This document shows, piece by piece, positions 3,001-58,667 of a DNA stretch of 64,000 nt (within the stretch, counting starts at the first letter, position 1; each line of letters begins with the position of its first letter). Position numbers and translations under genes: made by a program. The notes beneath the pieces were generated by a model. The model ran no database searches. It was not told where the DNA came from and saw nothing but the letters and a program-made list of their open reading frames with translations. The stretch comes from Ostreococcus lucimarinus (Eukaryota): NCBI GenBank assembly GCA_000092065.1, contig CP000586.1. One strand, written 5' to 3'.

Positions 3001-6000
3001 ACAGACGCCGCATTGCGGGCGTCCACGCGATTGTATCAGCTAACGCAGCGGCATCTGCAGCTTCCACTCCGCCAAGTTTCTTCGCTTGCGACGCAGCGTC
3101 GACCAAACTCTTCTCAAGCACACCTTCCTGCGCGGACGCATAAAGCGTGCTCTCGATTAGAGGTGGCACCTTCAAATACTTTTCGAGAACTTCACGGATT
3201 GAATGCCGTTCGACGTCGCTTCGAAGACGCTCACCGAGTACTCTGAAACCATCCGCGGCGAGCGCTTCGTAGCCGTTGCTTTGGCGATTCGCCCAGCGGA
3301 ACAAATCTCTCGCCGTGATGTAACCATCTTTACCGGCGAAGGCGCGAGACCCTTGACGCCGTCTTTGTAACTCGCGCATGACCTCGACAAGCTTGACGCA
3401 ATACGAAGGTGCGATTTCACATCGAGTGTGCAGAATTGTTTTCAGCTCTTCGTCGGGAATGTCACCTATATGAAGCTCCATGAACCTGTTTCTAAACGCC
3501 TTGCTGAGCACTTTACGACCGCCGTACACCGCCCCGGGTGGATTTTGTGTGGCAAATAGCATAAAGTGCGGATGCGGACGGATGGTCTCCTGCAACTCAG
3601 GTACAAACAGTTCTCTGTTGTCATCTAAAAGTCGGTTAAGCGCTTCAAGCACGTCCGTAGGCGCCAAGTTGAGCTCGTCAAGCACGACCCAGTAGCCTTT
3701 GCGAACAGCTTGCACGAGCGCTCCCTCCTGGAACACGAGTTGACCTGCGAGTGGAAGAAAGTAGCGTCAGAGTCAGTGTCGTTGGCGTCAGCGTCGACAA
3801 AACAAATGCAACCAAACGTGCCCGCTTGTTTCCGCGCGGCGAATTTCGGGACTCAAACCGTTCACGTCCTGGGTGCCAGGTTCTACGCCAGCGTTCGGCG
3901 ACGCAAACACGTAAGATATCCGCGTTGATGTTCGGCCACTTTCCGAGCCCCCGTTCCCACGGAATTAGGGAAGACGGCTAACGAACTAGTGGCCGGAAAA
4001 ACGGGACGAAGAAAGTTTGCGCACGCACCTGTCTCGTCGGTAACGTAAGTGCCGAGGTACTCTTGCAAATCCGTATGCTCGTGATTGTTGATGCGCATGA
4101 AGCGATGCCCGGTTCTGTGCGCGAGGTACTCCACGAGCGACGTTTTACCACTCGACGTGGGTCCTTGTAAGAGAATCGGATGCCGACGTAACAACACCGC
4201 GCGAGCCAGATTCGATAAGTGACCGCGAACGGTCTCCGTGACGACGTATTTGCCCTCTTCGGGATTGACACGAGGAAGATCACCCGCCTCCACCCAGAAA
4301 TGTTCCAACAGCACGTGCGTGTCCCCAGCCGGCGGGTTAGGGGGCGTTTTCATAGCCTGCGAATGCGAAACGTTAGTGTCAGTATCAGTGCGCGCAAACA
4401 TATGTAAGTGTAGAAAAACGTCTTCCAAAACCTCAGGAGATCAGAGATGGAATAGGTATTGTTTTTCGTGAATGTACCGTCGCTGGCGTGATACGCCCGA
4501 TCTCGCTAAGCCCATAAGCAGTGGGCCTCGAGAGCGTGAGCGACGGAAAAGTCGCGCAATCGATTGAATGTAAAAGTGGCGTACCTTTAGAGCGGCTCCA
4601 CGGAGAAGATGCTTGACCATGAGCTTTTCGAGAATGACGCCACTTTCGGTTTTGAGTAGCGTCAGAAAAGACATCGCGAAGCCGTCGAACAAAGCCCTTT
4701 GTAAGCCGTATATCCCAGTCGCTGCGCGCACGTATTCGCACGCGCGCGATAGCGTACGCAATGAGTACTGTGGCTTTTGATCCGCACTGTCCAGCAACGT
4801 CGTGTGAGCCGCTTGTCGGGCAGCGATGTAAAAGTCGACAATGTCGTCAACCTGCACCCCTGGAACGCCGTGCAAGTACGTGTCGACGATCATCGCCAGA
4901 TCATCTCGTCCCTCGGTCTCTCCGGCGTAAATTTCCACAAACCTGTGTTTCAACGCTGTTGGTAGATCTCTCTTACCTACATCGGTCGCGGGGTTCATGG
5001 CGCCGAAGAGGCGGAATCGAGGGTGGCGTGGAATCGGCTCGCCGTCGCCGCGCTCGCTCAGCACAATGCTGCCGGACTCGCTTTCTAAAATCCCTCCGAG
5101 ACGTTCAAGAGTCTCCGCTGGGGCTAAATTTATTTCATCAAGAAGTATCCAATGTCCTTCGCGAAGGGCGGTGATGAGTGCGCCTTCGACGAAAGCGAAA
5201 ACTGGCCCACCATTTTTGCTTGCGTTCGTGGAATGCTCCACGACGCTCAGATCACGCTCAAAGTCTCGCCACGCCGCGACGAGATCGTCCGACAACACGC
5301 TCGTCGTCTTCCGACGTTTATTTGCCTTTTTACCATCATCGGTATTCTCACGAGATTTTGCGTCCTGCGCGGCCTCCGCTGCAAGCTTTGCGACGCGTTC
5401 GACGCCGGCTCTAAATGCATGCAACAAGTGCGTCCACTTTTTCTTTTCTGCGTATCGCGATATGCGCGTGAGAAATTCCGCGTTGGAAGCCGAAGGGAAG
5501 GTTCGGTTGAACGCGTTATGAAACTTCGGAAGCAAAGGAAGGCACAAATGTCGCGCGCTTACCGGTTTGAAACCGCCGAGAAAATCCGCAGACTCGGACT
5601 GATTGCTCAAGTTAACGACGGTGAGCGGCGCGCCCGTGAGACGCGCGAGCTCCTGAACTAGGGCCGTTTTACCAGTCCCAGTCTCGCCCACGAGTAACAC
5701 GGGCTCGGTGAGCTGGACCGCCGCCGCCGTGCGCTCCAACAGGCGAGATGCATGTCCAGTCCTGGACCACTTGGCGCCGCGAGCGTTCGTTTTTCCGACG
5801 GGTAACGCGCACCGCCCAATCGTCACCGATTGGTGGCTCTCTTGAATGGTGGGCTTGTGCAACCGATCCGTCGCGTCTGCGGTGTCTTCCGCCGGAAGCC
5901 CCCACGTCGCAGCGATCATCTTCAACACTCGACGTCGACCTGGACCTGCGGGCAGCATGCCCGCGAGCACATCCGCGGCTTCCTCGTAAGCCGCCGCTCG

Positions 6001-26272: not shown

Positions 26273-27619
26273 TTAATCGTACTCCACACCGGCGAACGCG
26301 AGGCCCAAAGCCGGTGCGGGCGGAGCCGCGGCCCGACGCTCGCGCGACCGGGCGATTCTGAGCAGGACGTCGTCGTCGCCGGCGAAGACGGCGGCTTCGC
26401 GAATCGTCGTGGCGACGAGACAGCGAATCAACTTGCGCAAGAAACGGTCTGCGACGAGCTCGATGACGATGACTTCGTCGGCGTCGATGTCGGTGATGTC
26501 GATGGTGTCGTCGTGAGCGTCGTTTCGGCTTTTCGAGCGCCGAACGCCGGCGGTGACTTTGGAGTCGTTGTCGCTGTCGGCGCCGTCGCCGGGCGGCGAA
26601 GGCAATTTCGCCTCGAACGCCCTCGCGACGCGAAACGTGACGACGGAACTCTTCCCAGGCGGCGTGCCTCGCGCGAAGGCGTGCATATCGATCGGCGCGT
26701 TCGCGCACTCGCGCACGAGCGCGGCTAAGATTCGATCGATGATGCGCGCGTCCAAATCAGCCTTCGGCGTGCGCGACTCGCGAAACGCCTGATTCTTCGG
26801 CAAGCAATACACGTACCGTCGACTCTTCGCCGCGAATGTCGCGTGAAACGCCGAGCCCGTCTCGCGCACGTCCGACACGCGCAACAGACCCGCTTTGCCC
26901 GGCGCTGAATCCTCATTCACCAACCGCTCAATCTCCGCCGCGGAGATGGCGTCCGACTTGCTCCAAAGCGATACGCAGCTGGCGAGCGCGCTCACGCCGC
27001 GATCCGTCCTCCCCGCCGACGGCGTCGGGCGCGTCTTATCCAACACCGGTCGCAGCGCCAACTGCAACGCCGCCGACACCGACGCGCACCCCGGCTCGAA
27101 CGTCCCGTCGTACGCGAAATCCCTCGACGCGTTCCACGCGAAGCCCGCGAACGACGGCCCGTGATACGTACACTTCGCCGCGAACGTCCTTCGTCCTTCC
27201 CTGCGTCTTCGCCCCCCGCTCGCGCCCGCGTCGTCGCCGCTCGCGAACACGATTTCCGCCGCGCTCAATCCGAGCTCGCGCAGGCACGCGTCGCCTCGCA
27301 CGCACCGCCTGAAGAATCGCTCGACGCCGCGCCACGGCCTGTCGTCCGCGAACGCGCTCTGCTGCACCGGGTCCCAGCGCCCGACGTTGAACTCGCATCC
27401 GGCCGTCGCGCCGTCGTCGAGGACCAGGGTTTGACACGGATGTCGCGTCGCGACGCGCGCGTCGTCGCTCGCGTTCGCGTCGCTCGCGTCGCTCGCCCGC
27501 GACGTCGCGCCGACCGGCGGCGGGACGCGCGCGGTCGCCATCGACCCGCGACGCGCGCGCGCGCGCGCGGCGCGCGCGCGCGACGTTCGAGACGCTCGCG
27601 CGACGCGCGCGAGACGCAT
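26273..27619 (-). CDS. tRNA pseudouridine synthase, TruA/PUS1 family.
   Basis: The catalytic motif AGRTDRGVSALASCVSL matches the RTD.GVHA consensus. ...AKSRRYVYCL matches the ..R.Y.Y motif. The N-terminal KCTYHGPSFAGFAW matches the Y.G..F.G.Q-type start. The start is ATG. Confidence 0.6.
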   Translation of the reverse strand: MRLARVARASRTSRARAARARARRGSMATARVPPPVGATSRASDASDANASDDARVATRHPCQTLVLDDGATAGCEFNVGRWDPVQQSAFADDRPWRGVERFFRRCVRGDACLRELGLSAAEIVFASGDDAGASGGRRRREGRRTFAAKCTYHGPSFAGFAWNASRDFAYDGTFEPGCASVSAALQLALRPVLDKTRPTPSAGRTDRGVSALASCVSLWSKSDAISAAEIERLVNEDSAPGKAGLLRVSDVRETGSAFHATFAAKSRRYVYCLPKNQAFRESRTPKADLDARIIDRILAALVRECANAPIDMHAFARGTPPGKSSVVTFRVARAFEAKLPSPPGDGADSDNDSKVTAGVRRSKSRNDAHDDTIDITDIDADEVIVIELVADRFLRKLIRCLVATTIREAAVFAGDDDVLLRIARSRERRAAAPPAPALGLAFAGVEYD

Positions 27620-40791: not shown

Positions 40792-40987
40792 CGTCTCGCG
40801 CCGTCCCGTCGCGTCGCACCTCGCGCGCGCGCGCCGTCGCGCGCCGTCGCGCGTCGCGCGCGCACCGCGCGAACGTCGCCGCGTCGCGGTCGCGCCGCTC
40901 GACGCCGTCGCGCGCGTCGCGCGCATGATTTGAATTCGCGCGGGAAAGTGCCGCGCGCGCGACAGTTCGCGACGCGACGACGCGCGC

Positions 40988-52389: not shown

Positions 52390-52860
52390 GATGTGCCGCG
52401 TCGACGCGCGTCGTTACACGTCGTCGTCGGAGAGTCGAACGATCGATTCGCATCGTGCCTCTACCGCGCGCGTCCTCGAACGTACGCGTCGACGTTAAAT
52501 ATATCCTCGCTGAGAATCGGCCCACCCCGCTCGCGTCCCCGTCCCCGCGCGCGTTCGCGTTCGCGTTCGCGCGCGTTCGATTTCGCGCCCCCTCGCGCCG
52601 TCCCCGTCGTCGCCTCGCCGCCGCTCCCGCCGCCGCTCGAATCCCCCCCGCTCGAATTCACGATCACCGTCGTCGATATTCTCTTCGAAAACGACACGCT
52701 CTTCCGTCCTCGACGCGCGTCCGCGTCGTCGTCGTCGCCGTCGCGCGCGCTCGAAGACCTCGACAGCGACGACCGCCGCGCGCGCGCGCCGCCCTCCGAC
52801 CGCGCGCTGTCCGTGCGCTCCATCGACGCCGTCGCGCGCGCGCGCCTCGCCTCGCTCGCC

Positions 52861-52861
52861 T

Positions 52862-52926
<65 letters not shown>

Positions 52927-52935
52927 TCGTCGCGC
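52861..52935. repeat. (GTC)n microsatellite, about 15 perfect units plus imperfect flanks, in the NO66 upstream region.
   Basis: tcgcgcgtcgtcgtcgtc...gtcgccgtcgtcgtcgcgtcgtcgcg. It generates the poly-Arg, poly-Val and poly-Asp runs seen in overlapping ORF-track entries. Confidence 0.9.
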
Positions 52936-53093
52936 GCGTCGTCGTCCGGCGTCGACGCGCGCGCGGCGCGGCAGCCGAGGCACGCCATCCGGACGAACGC
53001 GTCGCGCGTCGCGTCGGCGCGCGCGCGCGGCGACGCGCGCGCGTGTGCGGCGACGCGCGGCGCGACGCCGCCACATCATCGCGCGTCCGAACG

Positions 53094-54641
53094 ATGTCGA
53101 CGCCGCGCAAGCGCGCGCGCGCCGGCGACGGCGCCGGCGCGCGCGACGACGACGACGACGACGGCGACGACGACGGCGGCGGCGACGCGCGACGACCGCT
53201 CGTCGTGGACGCGCGCGACGCGACGCTGCCCGACGCGGCGCTCTGGGACGAACACGCCGAGCGCGGCGACGCCGACGCGCTGTTCGAACACGCGATCGCG
53301 CCGCTCGACGCGGCGACGTTCGCGACGTGCGTCGATAGACGCGCGGTGTGCGTCAAGCGCGGCGGACGGGCGCACTACGGGTCGTGGATGACGATGGAGG
53401 CGGTGACGCGGGCGACGCGCGACGGCGAGGCGCGGTACGGCGTGGATTTAGACGTGACGTCGTACGTCGACGGCGTGCGAAGGACGCATAATAGGAATAG
53501 CGACGCGGGACGCGAGGCCGACGACGAGGACGACGATGTCGGGGAATTGGTGGACGCGGACGCGGTGTTGACGCGGAGGTTCGGCGAGGAACGACGGTCG
53601 GTGCGGTTGTTGCATCCGCAGACGCGGTGCGACGCGACGTGGAAGATTTTAGCGACTCTGGAGCGGTATTTCGAGTGCGCGTGTGGGTGCAACGTGTACG
53701 TGACGCCGGCGAGTTCACAAGGGTTCGCGCCGCATTACGACGACATCGACGCGTTCGTGTTGCAGATCGAAGGCGCGAAGCGGTGGCGGGTGTACGAGCC
53801 GTTCGAGGACGAGACGCACCCGAGGACGAGCTCTAGGAACTTCACGCAAGAGGAGATCGCGACGCAGCGCGTGGTTTTCGACGACGTGCTCGAGGCTGGG
53901 GACTTTTTGTACCTGCCGCGCGGTTGGATTCACCAGGCGGAGTGCTCGTCGTCGACGCACAGCGTGCACGCGACGTTATCGACGAATCAATCCAACGCGC
54001 CGGCTGATGCGCTCGAAATCGCGTTGAACAACGCGCTGGCTTCCACGATCGACGGTCGCGCGGAGTTACGAAGGAGTTTCGTTTCCACGTTGAACGACGA
54101 GCGTCGTCGCGACGCCGCGTTGGAGGGACTGGGAGAAGAGTTGCGCGCGTTTGCGAGCGAGCTCCAAGGCGACTTCGGCGCGGCGCTCGTAGAGCACGCG
54201 TACGCGTCGCTCGAGGCACGGTTCATGATGCAACGGTGCCCACCGCCGGATTCACACTTGCTGCGATCGAAAGCGCGGTGCACCGGAGACGTCGCCGCGG
54301 CTGAGCTGCGGAGCGGCGCGAGAACGCGAGTGGCGTCGCAAATCGAAGGCGCGCCGTTTTCAATTTTACGAGAGAGCCCGGCGACGACGTTGTTTCATCC
54401 ATTTCAAAATCGCCGCGACGGCGCGCACGTGCGCGTGCTCGGCGTCGATAGCGCCGACGAAGACCGACTCGGTCGCGTCGTCGTGCCGAGCGACGTCGAC
54501 GACGAGCGTCTCGACGAGCTTCTGGACGCCGTGCGGTCGGGCGACGCGCTCGAAATCGCAAAAACGAACTTTCGCGAGAACAACTTTCTCGAGCTCGTGT
54601 GCGAGCTCGTTCGGTGCGGGGCGTTGGCGGCGTTAGATTAG
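53094..54641 (+). CDS. RIOX: Ribosomal oxygenase NO66/MINA53 (RIOX)-like JmjC-domain protein.
   Basis: CNVYVTPASSQGFAPHYDDIDAFVLQIEGAKRWRVYEP...VLEAGDFLYLPRGWIHQAECSSSTHSVHATLST matches the NO66/MINA53 JmjC core, with the HxD...H iron-binding residues in place. The upstream part of the ORF-track ORF, from 52455, is Arg-run junk over the (GTC)n. The first ATG in the homologous region (MSTPRKRARAG, NLS-like) is at 53094. Confidence 0.75.
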   Translation: MSTPRKRARAGDGAGARDDDDDDGDDDGGGDARRPLVVDARDATLPDAALWDEHAERGDADALFEHAIAPLDAATFATCVDRRAVCVKRGGRAHYGSWMTMEAVTRATRDGEARYGVDLDVTSYVDGVRRTHNRNSDAGREADDEDDDVGELVDADAVLTRRFGEERRSVRLLHPQTRCDATWKILATLERYFECACGCNVYVTPASSQGFAPHYDDIDAFVLQIEGAKRWRVYEPFEDETHPRTSSRNFTQEEIATQRVVFDDVLEAGDFLYLPRGWIHQAECSSSTHSVHATLSTNQSNAPADALEIALNNALASTIDGRAELRRSFVSTLNDERRRDAALEGLGEELRAFASELQGDFGAALVEHAYASLEARFMMQRCPPPDSHLLRSKARCTGDVAAAELRSGARTRVASQIEGAPFSILRESPATTLFHPFQNRRDGAHVRVLGVDSADEDRLGRVVVPSDVDDERLDELLDAVRSGDALEIAKTNFRENNFLELVCELVRCGALAALD

Positions 54642-54773
54642 ATGAGTCGGAAATCGGGTATGAGAATAGCTTAGGTGAACTAAATAATATGATGTACAGT
54701 AATGATGGGCTAAAAAGCATATCCGATCGCATGACGTAACGGGTGATGAGCAAAAGTTAACAGTGAGGGATGA

Positions 54774-54949
54774 TGACTCCGGTGGGGTTCGAACCCACGC
54801 CCTTTCGGACCAGAATGTTACGTTGCGATTGTTCTCGCATGGTACGAAAGCGGGCGCGCGCGCGACTCGCGTCGCGCGCGTTGTTTTTCCCGTAGTTCCT
54901 CCTCGTGTTCTCCTTAATCTGGCGCCTTAGACCACTCGGCCACAGAGTC
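54774..54949 (-). tRNA. tRNA-Leu(AAG): tRNA-Leu (anticodon AAG), class II long variable arm, interrupted by a ~96-nt intron at the canonical 37/38 position.
   Basis: On the minus strand the 5' exon is GACTCTG-TG-GCCGAGTGGTCTAAGGC-G-CCAGA-TTAAGG and the 3' exon is T-TCTGG-TCCGAAAGGGC-GTGGG-TTCGAAC-CCCAC-CGGAGTC-A. The acceptor stem has 7 pairs (6 Watson-Crick, 1 G-U). The A box is TGGCCGAGTGG and the B box is GGTTCGAACCC. The discriminator is A. A TTTT run lies ~20 nt downstream. The exons are plus 54949..54912 and 54815..54774. Confidence 0.75.
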
Positions 54950-55628
54950 CACAGAGTCCTCATAATACGATACTCATCAACGATAAATTCCGCCCACCGA
55001 CCCGCGCGCGCACGCGTGCGCAAAGTTACGGGTTTCTCGATCGCGCGCGGCGCGCACATACCCGTGAGAGCCACTTCACACCGTGATTTAGGTGCGTCAT
55101 CGCGCGCCCCCCCCGAAAAAAAACAAAAAAAACGCTGGCGCGTGAATCTTCGCGAATCGAATCTATCGCGCGCGACCCCCCCTGTCGTTGAGTCGCGACT
55201 CGCGGAACGCCACCGCACTTTTTCCCCGCGTCCGCGTCAGCGCTTCGCCCGACGGCGACGGCACTCCCCCGCACGCGCGACCGACGTCGCCGCGACCGAC
55301 CCACGGCGTCCACGCGGTCGCGACGCGCGCGTCGAATCCATCCCAGACAGAGTTCCGCGCCGAGCGCGAACGAGGTGCGCGCGGTCGAGCGACGACGCGA
55401 GCGGACGATCGCGGGGACGACCGCCGCGCCATCTTATAAGATGGGGGAATCCAGATCTCGCGGGGACGGACGGACGATTCGTTCGTTCGTTCGTTCGTTC
55501 GCGGTTCGCGGTTCGCGGTTCGCGATGGATCGCGATGGATCGCGACGCGTTTCGCGCATCGCGCGTACTGACCGCGTCTCCGTCGTCACGCAGAAGAAAG
55601 CCCTCCGACCGATCGCTCGAGATTCGGA

Positions 55629-58600
55629 ATGACTTTTAAAGACGCCGCCTCGGCCGTCGCGACGCTCGGAAATTCCGATGACGAAGCGACGAAGATTTCG
55701 GTGATAAACGCCATCGGTGCCGCGATGACGTCCTCGGCTGATGTTTCGGCGCACGCGGAGATCACGCTGAGCGAACCGCTCGTCGCGGCGCTCCTCGCCG
55801 CGTCGGCGGACAAAAAGTCGAGCGACGTGTGCGCCGCCGCCTCGGCGACGCTTCAAACGTTGGCGACGAAAGCGCACGATTTCGTCGTCGGCGCCGCGAT
55901 CATTCCGGCGACTCTCGCCGCGCTCGATCCGAAGGAGCGCTGGCAGACGCAAGTCGCCGCCGCCGAAGTGTTGTCCAAGCTCTCCGACTGCGCGCCGCAA
56001 GCCGTCGCGTCGAACATGATCTCCATCTTGCCCGTCGTCACGTCCATGGTGAACGACGCCAAGAAGGAGGTCGCGGATGCGACCAGAAAGGCTCTCGAGC
56101 GTCTGTGCCACACCATCGACAACCGCGACGTCGAACCGTTCATTTCGGCGATGGTTGAGGCGACGATTGATCACGAGAAAACCGACGAGTGCGTGCAAAA
56201 GCTCGCGTCGACGACCTTCGTGCAAACCGTCACGGCGGCGCCGTTGGCGTTGATCTCGCCGATTCTCCTCTTGGGGTTCCGCGCCAGGACGACCGCGACC
56301 AAGCGCATGTCCGCCGTCATCGTGAACAACATGTCCAAGCTCGTGGAGGATCCCGAGGACGCGGCGCCCTTCTTGCCCAACCTCTTGCCCGCGGTGTCCA
56401 AGGCGTCGGACCAAATCTCCGATCCCGAGGCGCGCACGGTGTGTGGCAAGGCTTGTGAGCAGTTGCAATCGATCGAGGACCGATTGAAGGACGCGTCTTT
56501 CAAGTCCAAGCGAGCCGTCTTCGACGTCGTCAAGGGCGAGGTGGACAAGCACCTCGGCGCCAAGTTCGACGCTTCGTTGTCCACGTATTACACCACCATC
56601 GCCTGCGCGTTGGTGAACGCGAAGTGCCATGACTACGATTACGAGGAAGCGTTCAAGTCGTTCGACGCCGTCAAGGAAGTTCGCGCGCTTCACGAAGCCT
56701 TGGACAAGATTTACGGCGACGTCGAAGTCGACGACGACGACGACGACACCGCCGACGTCTTGGCCGATTGTCAGTTCACCTTGGCGTACGGTTCAAAGGT
56801 TTTGTTGCACAACACCAAGTTGAAGCTCAGGCGTGGCCACAAGTACGCCCTTCTCGGCGGTAACGACAGCGGTAAGTCGTCGCTCATGCGCGCCATCGCC
56901 AACGAACAAGTTGAAGGCTTCCCGCCCGCCACCGAGCTTCGCACCGTCTTCGTCGAAGCCGACATCATCGGCGAGCTTTCCGATTTGCCGTGCGTGGATT
57001 ACATTCTGGCCGATCCGCGCATCAAGGCGGCGGGCATTTCCGAACAGACGGTGGAGAAGATGCTTCTCAACGTCGGCTTCGGTGAGATGCAAAACGGCGC
57101 GCGCAACTTGGTCACCTTCCTTTCGGGCGGCTGGCGCATGAAACTCGCGCTCGCGCGCGCGATGTGCTTGAACGCGGATATTTTGCTCATGGACGAACCC
57201 ACGAACCACTTGGACGTGATGAACGTGAAGTGGGTCGAAGAGTACTTGAAGTCTCTCACCGACGTCACCGCGATTTTGGTTTCGCACGACACCGGCTTTG
57301 TCGACCGCGTGTGCAACAACATCATCTCCATCGAAAACTTGAAGTTGAAGCAGTTCCGAGGTAACTTGACCGAGTTTGTCGAGAAAAATCCCAAGGCGAA
57401 GTCCTTCTTTGAGCTCAAGAGCTCGACCGGTTTCGTCATGCGCTTCCCACAACCGGGTTACATCGACGGCGTCAAGTCCAAGGGCAAGCCGCTGATGAAG
57501 ATGGCGCACTGCACGTACACTTACCCGGTGAACAACGCGCCAACCGTGAAAGATGTCACCGTGCAAGTCTCTCTCGCCTCGCGAGTCGCGTGCGTCGGGC
57601 CGAACGGTGTTGGCAAGTCGACGATGATTAAGCTTCTCACCGGAGAAATCGTCCCGCAAGAGGGCACGGTTTGGAAGCATCCGAACGCGCGCGTGGCGTA
57701 CGTCGCCCAGCACGCGTTCCACCACATCGAGCAGCACTTGGACAAGACGCCGAATGAGTACATTCGCTGGCGTTACCAGCACGGCGACGACAAGGAAGCT
57801 TTGGTCAAGGACACGATGACGCTCACGGATGAAGAGCGCGAGCGCTGCAAGCAGCCGATCATGATTGACCTCGGAAACGATGAGAAGGGCAACCCGATCA
57901 AGCTCAAGATGGCCATCGAAAAACTCACCGGCGGTCGCAAGCAAGTGAAGAAGGAGTACGAGTACGAAGTGCAATTCGTCGGTCGTGATTACAACTCGAA
58001 CCGCTACTTGCAAGCGTCCAAGCTCGCGAAGTGGGGCTTCGAAAAGCACATGAAAATTGTGGACGAAAAGGTCGCCGCTCGCGCGGGCGCCATGCACACT
58101 CCGTTAACGACGGCGAACGTCGAGAAGCACCTCGAAGACGTCGGCTTGGACAAGGAGTTTGGCACCCACACTCGCATGGGTGCGCTTTCCGGCGGGCAAA
58201 AGGTCAAGGTCGTCATCGCGGCGTCCATGTGGAACTGCCCGCACATCGTCATTCTCGACGAACCGACCAACTACTTGGATCGCGATTCCCTCGGCGCGCT
58301 CGCGGGTGCGATTCAAGTCTACGAAGGCGGTGTCGTCATGATTACGCACAACAACGAGTTCTGCTCTGCGCTTTGCCCGGAGACTTGGCTCATGGAGAAG
58401 GCGGACGACGGCATCGCGCGATGCAACTGCAAGGGCGACGCGGAATGGATGGCCAAGGCTGCCAAGAAGGACGTCACCGCCGCCGCCGCGCTCGAAGAGT
58501 TCACCGACGCTTTGGGCAACGTCGTCGAAGTCAAGAAAAAGGTTGACAAGAACAGCAAGGAGGCGAAGAAAAAGGCCAAGCTCAAGGCGAAGCGTCGCGC

Positions 58601-58667
58601 GCGCGGCGAAGAAGTGAGCGACAGCGAAGACGGCGAATGGGAAGGCTTTGGCGAAGGCGAGGATTAA
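55629..58667 (+). CDS. eEF3: Translation elongation factor 3 (eEF3): HEAT-repeat N-terminus, two ABC cassettes with a chromodomain-like insertion in ABC2, and a Lys-rich C-terminal tail.
   Basis: Near-colinear with fungal eEF3: VLLHNTKLKLRRGHKYALLGGNDSGKSSLMRAIAN...LSGGWRMKLALARAM...LLMDEPTNHLD...NLKLKQFRGNLTEFVEKNPKAKSFFEL...RVACVGPNGVGKSTMIKLLTGE...QHAFHHIEQHLDKTPNEYIRWRYQ...LSGGQKVKVVIAA...LDEPTNYLDRDSLGAL. The C-terminus is KKVDKNSKEAKKKAKLKAKRRARG. Confidence 0.9.
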   Translation: MTFKDAASAVATLGNSDDEATKISVINAIGAAMTSSADVSAHAEITLSEPLVAALLAASADKKSSDVCAAASATLQTLATKAHDFVVGAAIIPATLAALDPKERWQTQVAAAEVLSKLSDCAPQAVASNMISILPVVTSMVNDAKKEVADATRKALERLCHTIDNRDVEPFISAMVEATIDHEKTDECVQKLASTTFVQTVTAAPLALISPILLLGFRARTTATKRMSAVIVNNMSKLVEDPEDAAPFLPNLLPAVSKASDQISDPEARTVCGKACEQLQSIEDRLKDASFKSKRAVFDVVKGEVDKHLGAKFDASLSTYYTTIACALVNAKCHDYDYEEAFKSFDAVKEVRALHEALDKIYGDVEVDDDDDDTADVLADCQFTLAYGSKVLLHNTKLKLRRGHKYALLGGNDSGKSSLMRAIANEQVEGFPPATELRTVFVEADIIGELSDLPCVDYILADPRIKAAGISEQTVEKMLLNVGFGEMQNGARNLVTFLSGGWRMKLALARAMCLNADILLMDEPTNHLDVMNVKWVEEYLKSLTDVTAILVSHDTGFVDRVCNNIISIENLKLKQFRGNLTEFVEKNPKAKSFFELKSSTGFVMRFPQPGYIDGVKSKGKPLMKMAHCTYTYPVNNAPTVKDVTVQVSLASRVACVGPNGVGKSTMIKLLTGEIVPQEGTVWKHPNARVAYVAQHAFHHIEQHLDKTPNEYIRWRYQHGDDKEALVKDTMTLTDEERERCKQPIMIDLGNDEKGNPIKLKMAIEKLTGGRKQVKKEYEYEVQFVGRDYNSNRYLQASKLAKWGFEKHMKIVDEKVAARAGAMHTPLTTANVEKHLEDVGLDKEFGTHTRMGALSGGQKVKVVIAASMWNCPHIVILDEPTNYLDRDSLGALAGAIQVYEGGVVMITHNNEFCSALCPETWLMEKADDGIARCNCKGDAEWMAKAAKKDVTAAAALEEFTDALGNVVEVKKKVDKNSKEAKKKAKLKAKRRARGEEVSDSEDGEWEGFGEGED

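Follow-up and report, generated by a model that had tools for sequence, protein, structure and literature searches.

A tRNA-Leu(AAG) gene with a 96-nt canonical intron beside eEF3 in an Ostreococcus-like green picoalga

Whether a tRNA gene whose anticodon loop is interrupted by a long insertion is still a working gene is the question raised by a tRNA-Leu(AAG) locus on contig CP000586.1 (assembly GCA_000092065.1). We analysed a 64,000-nucleotide (nt) stretch of this contig, referred to here as the window, in which the two halves of the tRNA are separated by 96 nt and the first bases of the gene are repeated directly upstream. The locus might be a gene with a long but removable intron, a relic in which the anticodon loop has been broken, the carrier of an RNA module within the intron, or an error of assembly. 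Our comparison of sequences and predicted folds indicates that the locus very probably works as a nuclear tRNA-Leu(AAG) gene in an Ostreococcus-like green picoalga of the Mamiellales.

Identification of the tRNA gene

Two kinds of search recovered a class-II tRNA-Leu(AAG) gene of 176 nt on the minus strand, running from 54949 (nucleotide 1) to 54774 (the discriminator A). The Rfam tRNA model RF00005 matched 54949..54774 with 42.2 bits, against a gathering threshold of 29 (E = 1.4e-5 over the whole window). The match covered the model end to end (positions 1–71) and placed a 101-nt insertion in the anticodon loop. With introns enabled (-i), ARAGORN called tRNA-Leu(aag) with a mature tRNA of 80 nt and an intron of 96 nt. 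In its default mode the same program found 0 genes in the window, because introns are disallowed in that mode. An initial annotation, made from the sequence by eye, had proposed tRNA-Leu(AAG) here without stating its strand; both searches agree with that call, and an acceptable cloverleaf was found. ARAGORN -i also called a tRNA-Ala at 27504 and a tRNA-Arg at 40798, the latter with a 122-nt 'intron'. Neither had an Rfam tRNA match at E ≤ 10, and we consider both to be false positives. ARAGORN -i and Rfam together leave the gene at 54949..54774 as the sole tRNA of the 64-kilobase (kb) window, as the initial annotation had it.

The two exons supply every arm of the cloverleaf. The 5′ exon (tRNA positions 1–37; 54912..54949, minus strand) comprises the acceptor 5′ strand GACUCUG, the D arm (GCC-GAGUGGUCUAA-GGC), the anticodon-stem 5′ strand CCAGA and the loop nucleotides UUAAGG, with the anticodon AAG at 54913–54915 on the minus strand. 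The 3′ exon (tRNA positions 38–73; 54774..54815, minus strand) comprises U38, the anticodon-stem 3′ strand UCUGG, an 11-nt variable arm (UCCGAAAGGGC, three pairs), the T arm (GUGGG-UUCGAAC-CCCAC), the acceptor 3′ strand and the discriminator A. The anticodon stem CCAGA/UCUGG closes a loop that reads UUAAGG, intron, U. The acceptor stem GACUCUG/CGGAGUC has seven pairs (six Watson–Crick pairs and U6–G67) and is followed by discriminator A, exactly as had been described by eye. The tRNA-Leu features A73, anticodon AAG, U33 and G37 are present, and the variable arm shows a C–G to U–A covariation among orthologues.

We also found the elements expected of a gene transcribed by RNA polymerase III. 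A putative A box (TGGCCGAGTGG, from nucleotide 8; 54932..54942, minus strand) and B box (GGTTCGAACCC, from nucleotide 155; 54785..54795, minus strand) were read from the sequence; these boxes and the class-II variable arm had already been recognized in the initial annotation. The first run of four Ts (T4) 3′ of the tRNA, at +19 to +22 (54752..54755, minus strand), is the likely terminator, and a run of at least four Ts lies within 3–45 nt downstream of the tRNA in all orthologues. With internal A and B boxes and a downstream T run, the locus appears to have the full make-up of a type-2 gene.

Position of the intron and splicing signals

The intron (AGAACACG...CGUAACA) spans 54816..54911 on the minus strand, between tRNA positions 37 and 38. 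From the window sequence alone, its splice boundaries are ambiguous by ±1 nt. We set them at 37/38 because intronless relatives have the anticodon loop UUAAGGU, and 37/38 is the only boundary that restores this loop. The insert of about 96 nt after position 37 that had first been noticed by eye is thereby supported both by the ARAGORN call and by the relatives that lack it. Splicing in silico at 37/38 joined ...CCAGAUUAAGG to UUCUGGUCCG, and ARAGORN recognized an 80-nt tRNA-Leu(aag) in each of the five intron variants spliced in this way. The resulting loop is that of an intronless syntenic gene (contig L002) and of at least 120 land-plant-type tRNA-Leu(AAG) genes. A metagenome scan queried with a 22-mer of the 5′ exon, and set to exclude the window-type intron, listed land-plant and moss intronless tRNA-Leu(AAG) genes. 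The acceptor stem of the window gene occurred in none of the land-plant and moss genes among the matches listed. The spliced anticodon arm is, as far as these sequences indicate, conserved across Viridiplantae.

We examined the exon–intron junctions for the features used by the tRNA splicing endonuclease. The anticodon and the intron can form the anticodon–intron (A–I) pairs U32:A(−3), U33:A(−4) and A34:U(−5), and A35 faces G(−6) in a mismatch. Next to this short helix, the 3′ splice site lies in a 3-nt bulge made up of C(−2), A(−1) and U38. The intron 3′ end itself, UAACA (54816..54820, minus strand), was read from the sequence, and UAACA/U is the same in the L020 lineage, which is described below. 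The human endonuclease TSEN recognizes the mature tRNA body and needs an A–I helix that starts at 32:−3 beside a 3-nt bulge carrying the 3′ splice site (PMC10539383). Because the remaining intron is flexible in the TSEN substrate (PMC10539383), a longer intron would be tolerated. The window gene has the 37/38 site, the 32:−3 pair and the 3-nt bulge, and these features suggest that its precursor could serve as a Sen/TSEN substrate.

Conservation of the gene across lineages

To place the gene among its relatives, we gathered syntenic contigs by looking up variants of the adjacent elongation factor 3 (eEF3) gene, in the gene order JmjC, tRNA, eEF3 and chromo-SNF2 helicase. Contigs with the eEF3 homologue P0003 (L021) are too short upstream to reach the tRNA site and lie outside the lineage comparison. 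Twelve further metagenome or read-archive contigs (L005–L016) carry the same gene on the same strand, with an intron of 96, 94 or 93 nt. Exon sequence does not differ among the 13 contigs of the window's lineage, in contrast to leader, trailer and upstream repeat copy, all of which vary.

The nearest named relatives of the window's eEF3 are those of Micromonas pusilla (71% identity) and Bathycoccus (70%). A neighbour-joining tree of eEF3 placed the window in a clade with 100% support, sister to Bathycoccus and outside Micromonas, and this clade would most simply be Ostreococcus (Mamiellales, family Bathycoccaceae). The tRNA locus takes several forms in these algae. Contigs L019 and L020, which form the deepest branch of the Ostreococcus-like clade, hold the gene in the same orientation with an 84-nt intron at the same site. 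The gene is intronless in L018, intronless and inverted in L002–L004 (sister to the window's lineage, bootstrap 99) and intronless in two Micromonas species. Bathycoccus has no 37/38 intron and carries an insertion of about 56 nt in the D loop.

The two intron-bearing lineages are well separated, with eEF3 only about 83% identical between the window's lineage and that of L020. The last 29 nt or so of the L020 intron are homologous to those of the window's intron, with ACCAUGCGAGAACA, AUCGCAA and UAACA in common, and the 5′ two-thirds cannot be aligned. We aligned seven syntenic orthologues on the cloverleaf, with the intron-bearing genes spliced in silico. Pairing was complete (161 of 161 cells, 100%), and 10 of the 23 pairs had changed on both sides. 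None of 500 shuffles reached the observed pairing and covariation, and slid controls were only 33–52% paired. Between the two intron-bearing lineages there are two compensatory changes in the acceptor stem, U6–G67 to G–C and G7–C66 to A–U, which argues that both have been kept as working tRNAs since they diverged.

The orthologues themselves are easily misread. On L020 (31–195, minus strand), ARAGORN -i mis-typed the gene as tRNA-Val(aac), and Rfam returned no match even at E ≤ 1; spliced at 37/38, the same sequence is tRNA-Leu(aag). On the Bathycoccus-type contigs L223 and L224 (about 5660–5795, minus strand), the syntenic tRNA-Leu(AAG) is 136 nt long, and its insertion of about 56 nt is AT-rich. 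The insertion site reads GCCGAGT/TGGTATGAAA...CTTGTA/GGTCTAAGG, with boundaries that are ambiguous by a few nucleotides. Rfam gave no match for this gene even at E ≤ 1 and ARAGORN -i mis-drew its 5′ half. Removing the insertion in silico left a clean 80-nt tRNA-Leu with a fully paired cloverleaf. Judged by this reconstruction, what interrupts the Bathycoccus orthologue of the window's gene is a non-canonical intron. On L002 the intronless gene (4356–4435, plus strand) lies in the spacer between JmjC and eEF3, in the orientation opposite to that in the window. The orientation in L002–L004 suggests an inversion, or a replacement by a re-inserted intronless copy.

Genes for tRNA-Leu(AAG) also occur on viral contigs. 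Many of 79 contigs from IMG/VR (L022–L100), which are probably prasinoviruses, carry an intronless tRNA-Leu(AAG) with an exact 22-nt match to the D arm and anticodon stem and with different T arms and acceptor stems. The viruses BpV1 and BpV2 have been reported to encode tRNA-Leu-AAG (PMC3673656). As all the viral genes found are intronless, we set them aside as having no bearing on the intron.

Structure of the intron

The initial annotation had described the intron as extremely GC-rich and possibly able to form a strong hairpin. The first description does not hold for the intron as a whole, whose G+C content (59%) is close to that of the window (61%), but it does hold for the central 27 nt (89%). 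The second was borne out by folding. With the mature domain constrained, ViennaRNA predicted that the intron folds on itself into two hairpins. The larger is a GC-rich hairpin of 10 base pairs (bp) with a GCGA tetraloop (CGCGCGCGAC-GCGA-GUCGCGCGCG; 54857..54880, minus strand; −21.1 kcal/mol). The smaller is a predicted 5-bp hairpin, UGCGA-GAACAA-UCGCA, near the intron 3′ end (54824..54839, minus strand), which is kept in the deep-branching L019 and L020.

The GC hairpin shows a compensatory double change, C–G to A–U, in L014–L016. The L020 intron can likewise be drawn with a GC hairpin capped by GCGA at its start, which has a further A–U to G–C exchange. Pair counts for this hairpin come from three sequences only and are weak, with 93% of cells paired and 42 of 500 shuffles doing equally well. 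The minimum free energy (MFE) fold of the L020 intron differs from the GC-hairpin model and is no better than that of shuffled sequence (z = −0.65). A conserved GC hairpin in L020 is, on these predictions, only suggestive.

We also looked for signs that the intron belongs to a known class of RNA or repeat. At E ≤ 10, Rfam found no family over the intron except tRNA itself. A small nucleolar RNA or box C/D guide RNA was rejected as a candidate, since the intron has neither UGAUGA nor CUGA and no Rfam small nucleolar RNA match. We also considered an origin from a repeat or mobile element, for which further copies would be expected. Within the 64-kb window, the sequence searched, neither the GC hairpin nor the 3′ module recurs at up to three mismatches.

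Micro-duplications at the gene ends

The window carries an extra copy of the tRNA's first 9 nt, GACTCTGTG, in the 5′ leader directly upstream (54950..54958, minus strand). Tandem Repeats Finder reported it as a period-9 array at 54940–54959, with 2.2 copies and a 100% match. The tandem duplication of 9 nt that had been annotated is therefore real. Its unit as then given, GGACTCTGT, was offset by one base and included position −1; the tRNA starts at G54949. The duplication is absent from L015 and L016, which have a single copy. In L005, L008 and L010 a T-to-G change affects only the upstream copy, and the tRNA copy is invariant. Because copy number varies by haplotype and changes fall only in the upstream copy, the duplication appears to be recent and the upstream copy to be unconstrained leader. 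From this sequence variation, we regard it as a lineage-specific, polymorphic micro-duplication with no evident role.

A second micro-duplication is present at the other end of the gene in L009, a single haplotype of the window's species (tRNA at 3156–3331, minus strand). Here about 23 nt of the trailer are duplicated in tandem, and the tRNA's last 6 nt recur within the repeat (GAGTCAACCCTCACCGT, twice). With this trailer repeat, both gene ends show micro-duplications that take in terminal tRNA bases.

Proposed maturation pathway and alternative explanations

In the model that we favour, RNA polymerase III would transcribe the gene from its internal A and B boxes, about 147 bp apart, and would terminate some 19 nt past the gene, at the T4 run. 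The 5′ leader would be removed by RNase P, and the additional 9-nt copy with it. The tRNA splicing endonuclease would bind the folded mature domain and measure to the A–I helix (U32:A−3, U33:A−4 and A34:U−5), cutting at the 3-nt bulge (C−2, A−1 / U38) and after G37, and tRNA ligase would join the halves to give the anticodon loop UUAAGGU. The self-folded intron, with its GCGA-capped hairpin and small 3′ hairpin, would probably avoid interference with the tRNA body. In evolutionary terms, the 37/38 intron would have been gained once on the Ostreococcus stem and lost at least twice in descendant lineages, and the 9-bp leader duplication would be a recent and apparently tolerated change.

Several observations weigh against this model. 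A and B boxes usually lie 30–60 bp apart, and the spacing here is well above that range because the intron lies between them. ViennaRNA gave the A–I helix a probability of only about 0.03. When the 176-nt precursor is folded without constraint, its MFE structure is something other than a cloverleaf (−70 kcal/mol, against −64.4 kcal/mol for the constrained cloverleaf). The strict archaeal-type bulge–helix–bulge (BHB) motif hBHBh′, with two 3-nt bulges, a 4-bp helix and flanking helices of at least 2 bp, does not form: the central helix has three pairs and the A35–G(−6) mismatch, and G(+2):C(−7) is the sole pair available past the 5′ bulge. Finally, the scenario of gain and loss rests on one neighbour-joining tree of one protein, eEF3. 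The non-cloverleaf fold and the missing strict motif, together with sister lineages that are intronless at the same locus, also speak for the locus being a pseudogene or split relic, in which a 96-bp piece of DNA inactivated the anticodon loop and the cell uses another tRNA-Leu gene. The initial annotation had held that failure to form a BHB motif would imply such a relic. This was too strict: eukaryotic splicing enzymes can do without the strict motif, and its relaxed form is normally all that nuclear tRNA introns possess (PMC3978253, PMC10539383). That relaxed hBH form alone is present here, as the anticodon stem, the 3-nt 3′ bulge and an A–I helix of three pairs and one mismatch. We attribute the non-cloverleaf MFE structure and the low A–I probability to the limits of tRNA fold prediction and keep them as a caveat; they are no evidence against function. 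The hallmarks of a tRNA pseudogene, namely broken stems, decayed boxes and drifting exons, were not found. The insertion lies exactly at 37/38, accompanied by the A–I pair and a bulge of 3 nt; both internal boxes (A and B) and the T-run terminator are intact; and the exons are invariant in 13 contigs whose flanks vary. In addition, the intron persists across a deep divergence, with compensatory stem changes between the two lineages that carry it and 100% pairing. Ostreococcus genomes have only 44–48 tRNA genes (PMC3673656; bioRxiv 10.64898/2026.07.10.737489), and in so minimal a set a dead copy would be unlikely. Taken together, a pseudogene is very improbable.

The intron, the duplication or both could instead have arisen from errors of assembly or sequencing, assembly errors being typical of GC-rich palindromes and short tandem repeats. 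The further contigs rule this out. One independent contig from a read archive matches the window at 100% identity along 9,552 bp, so neither the intron nor the 9-bp duplication is an assembly artefact; 11 more contigs from different projects have the same structures, and whether the duplication is present or absent tracks haplotype. A different possibility is that the gene works and the intron is, in addition, a maintained RNA module, giving rise to a stable intron RNA (linear, or possibly circular in the manner of a tRNA intronic circular RNA, tricRNA) or regulating how this tRNA matures, its gene being probably the sole tRNA-Leu(AAG) gene of a minimal genome. The 3′ 29 nt or so and the hairpin architecture are kept between lineages whose remaining intron is unalignable, and the hairpin shows compensatory changes. 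There is also a precedent in the 113-nt intron of Drosophila tRNA-Tyr CR31905, whose structure covaries and which gives rise to a circular RNA that is stable (PMC4536317). We nevertheless think an RNA module unlikely. At least two sister lineages have lost the intron with nothing in its place, and Micromonas has none, which indicates that the intron is dispensable. It matches no Rfam family and lacks the C/D-box motifs; the hairpin statistics from three sequences are matched by 42 of 500 shuffles; and the predicted fold of the L020 intron shows no advantage over shuffled sequence. Constraint on splicing alone can explain conservation beside the 3′ splice site. A functional tRNA-Leu(AAG) gene with a removable intron thus remains by far the most probable account of the locus.

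Neighbouring genes

The tRNA lies in the spacer between a JmjC_2 (NO66/RIOX-like) protein (53154..54641, plus strand; Pfam PF08007, E 1.1e-33) and eEF3 (55629..58667, plus strand; Pfam HEAT_EF3_N, HEAT_EF3_GNC1 and ABC_tran). The Pfam domains of these flanking open reading frames (ORFs) agree with the NO66–eEF3 intergenic position first assigned. As eEF3 is on the plus strand and the tRNA on the minus strand, the two are divergently transcribed. This divergent pairing is kept in Micromonas, Bathycoccus and the Ostreococcus-like clade (L221/L222, 4876–4955; L225, 4451–4530; L223, about 5660–5795; window, 54774–54949). The other neighbours differ, with a DNA methylase and actin in Micromonas and JmjC and an SNF2 helicase in the window.

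Upstream of the JmjC domain, at 52455–53150, a 5′ extension of the JmjC ORF and overlapping antisense ORFs encode long low-complexity runs rich in Arg, Asp, Thr and Val on both strands (for example, VVVVVVVVVVVVVV). These runs reflect a GC-rich trinucleotide-repeat tract upstream of the protein's probable true start (MSTPRKRARAG...).

Discussion

Both long tRNA introns and disrupted tRNA genes have been described before in these algae. In O. tauri the tRNA introns are unusually long, at about 64 nt, and several tRNA genes are permuted (2026 review, PMC13578239). Intron-containing nuclear tRNA genes of O. tauri and O. lucimarinus are recorded in the PlantRNA database and by Maruyama et al. 2010 (as cited in PMC13578239, PMC3531208 and PMC3978253). 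Like those genes, in which canonical 37/38 introns occur in most tRNA families, the window gene comes from the same algal group and has its intron at the canonical site. O. tauri and O. lucimarinus also have minimal sets of 44–48 tRNA genes, among which disrupted genes are common. The window gene differs from the O. tauri figure in that its 96-nt intron is well above 64 nt, and it is not permuted. The initial annotation had put the intron at the long end for eukaryotic tRNA introns, which is fair in general and less unusual for a genus with introns of about 64 nt (PMC13578239). The window gene falls within a class that has been documented before; its intron is long even by the standards of the genus, and not without precedent among eukaryotes.

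The human pre-tRNA-Arg substrate of TSEN, studied by cryo-electron microscopy (PMC10539383), shares with the window gene the 37/38 site, the 32:−3 pair, a short A–I helix, the 3-nt bulge and a remainder of variable length. Human and yeast introns are several times shorter than the window's. Unlike in canonical Sen/TSEN substrates, the A–I helix here, read from the DNA, has only three Watson–Crick pairs (all A–U) and an A–G mismatch. The 113-nt intron of Drosophila CR31905 (PMC4536317) resembles the window's in being an unusually long nuclear tRNA intron whose structure is conserved with compensatory changes. In that system, however, the intron accumulates as the circular RNA tric31905 through RtcB ligation, whereas the structural support for the window's intron, one or two compensatory events, is much weaker. 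Cyanidioschyzon merolae and the Mamiellales provide further examples of disrupted tRNA genes in tiny algal genomes, with non-canonical introns in the D and T loops and with permuted tRNAs (PMC3978253, PMC3728597). By contrast, the window's intron is canonical, forms no strict BHB motif and lies in a collinear gene.

This gene is of small significance, its tRNA intron lying at the standard position in a group of algae where long introns and disruption of tRNA genes are familiar. For annotation the locus has a practical consequence, because long-intron tRNAs of the Mamiellales are easily missed or mis-typed by standard tools (default ARAGORN, ARAGORN -i and Rfam). In a genome with only about 45 tRNA genes, overlooking tRNA-Leu(AAG) would make the decoding set look incomplete. 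If the intron were a maintained RNA module after all, its repeated loss in sister lineages would be a natural experiment on the purpose of tRNA introns. More generally, a single syntenic tRNA beside eEF3 occurs among closely related picoalgae in four states: without an intron, with a long canonical intron, as an intronless inverted copy and with a D-loop insertion. This locus may be mildly useful as a compact system in which to follow the gain and loss of tRNA introns.

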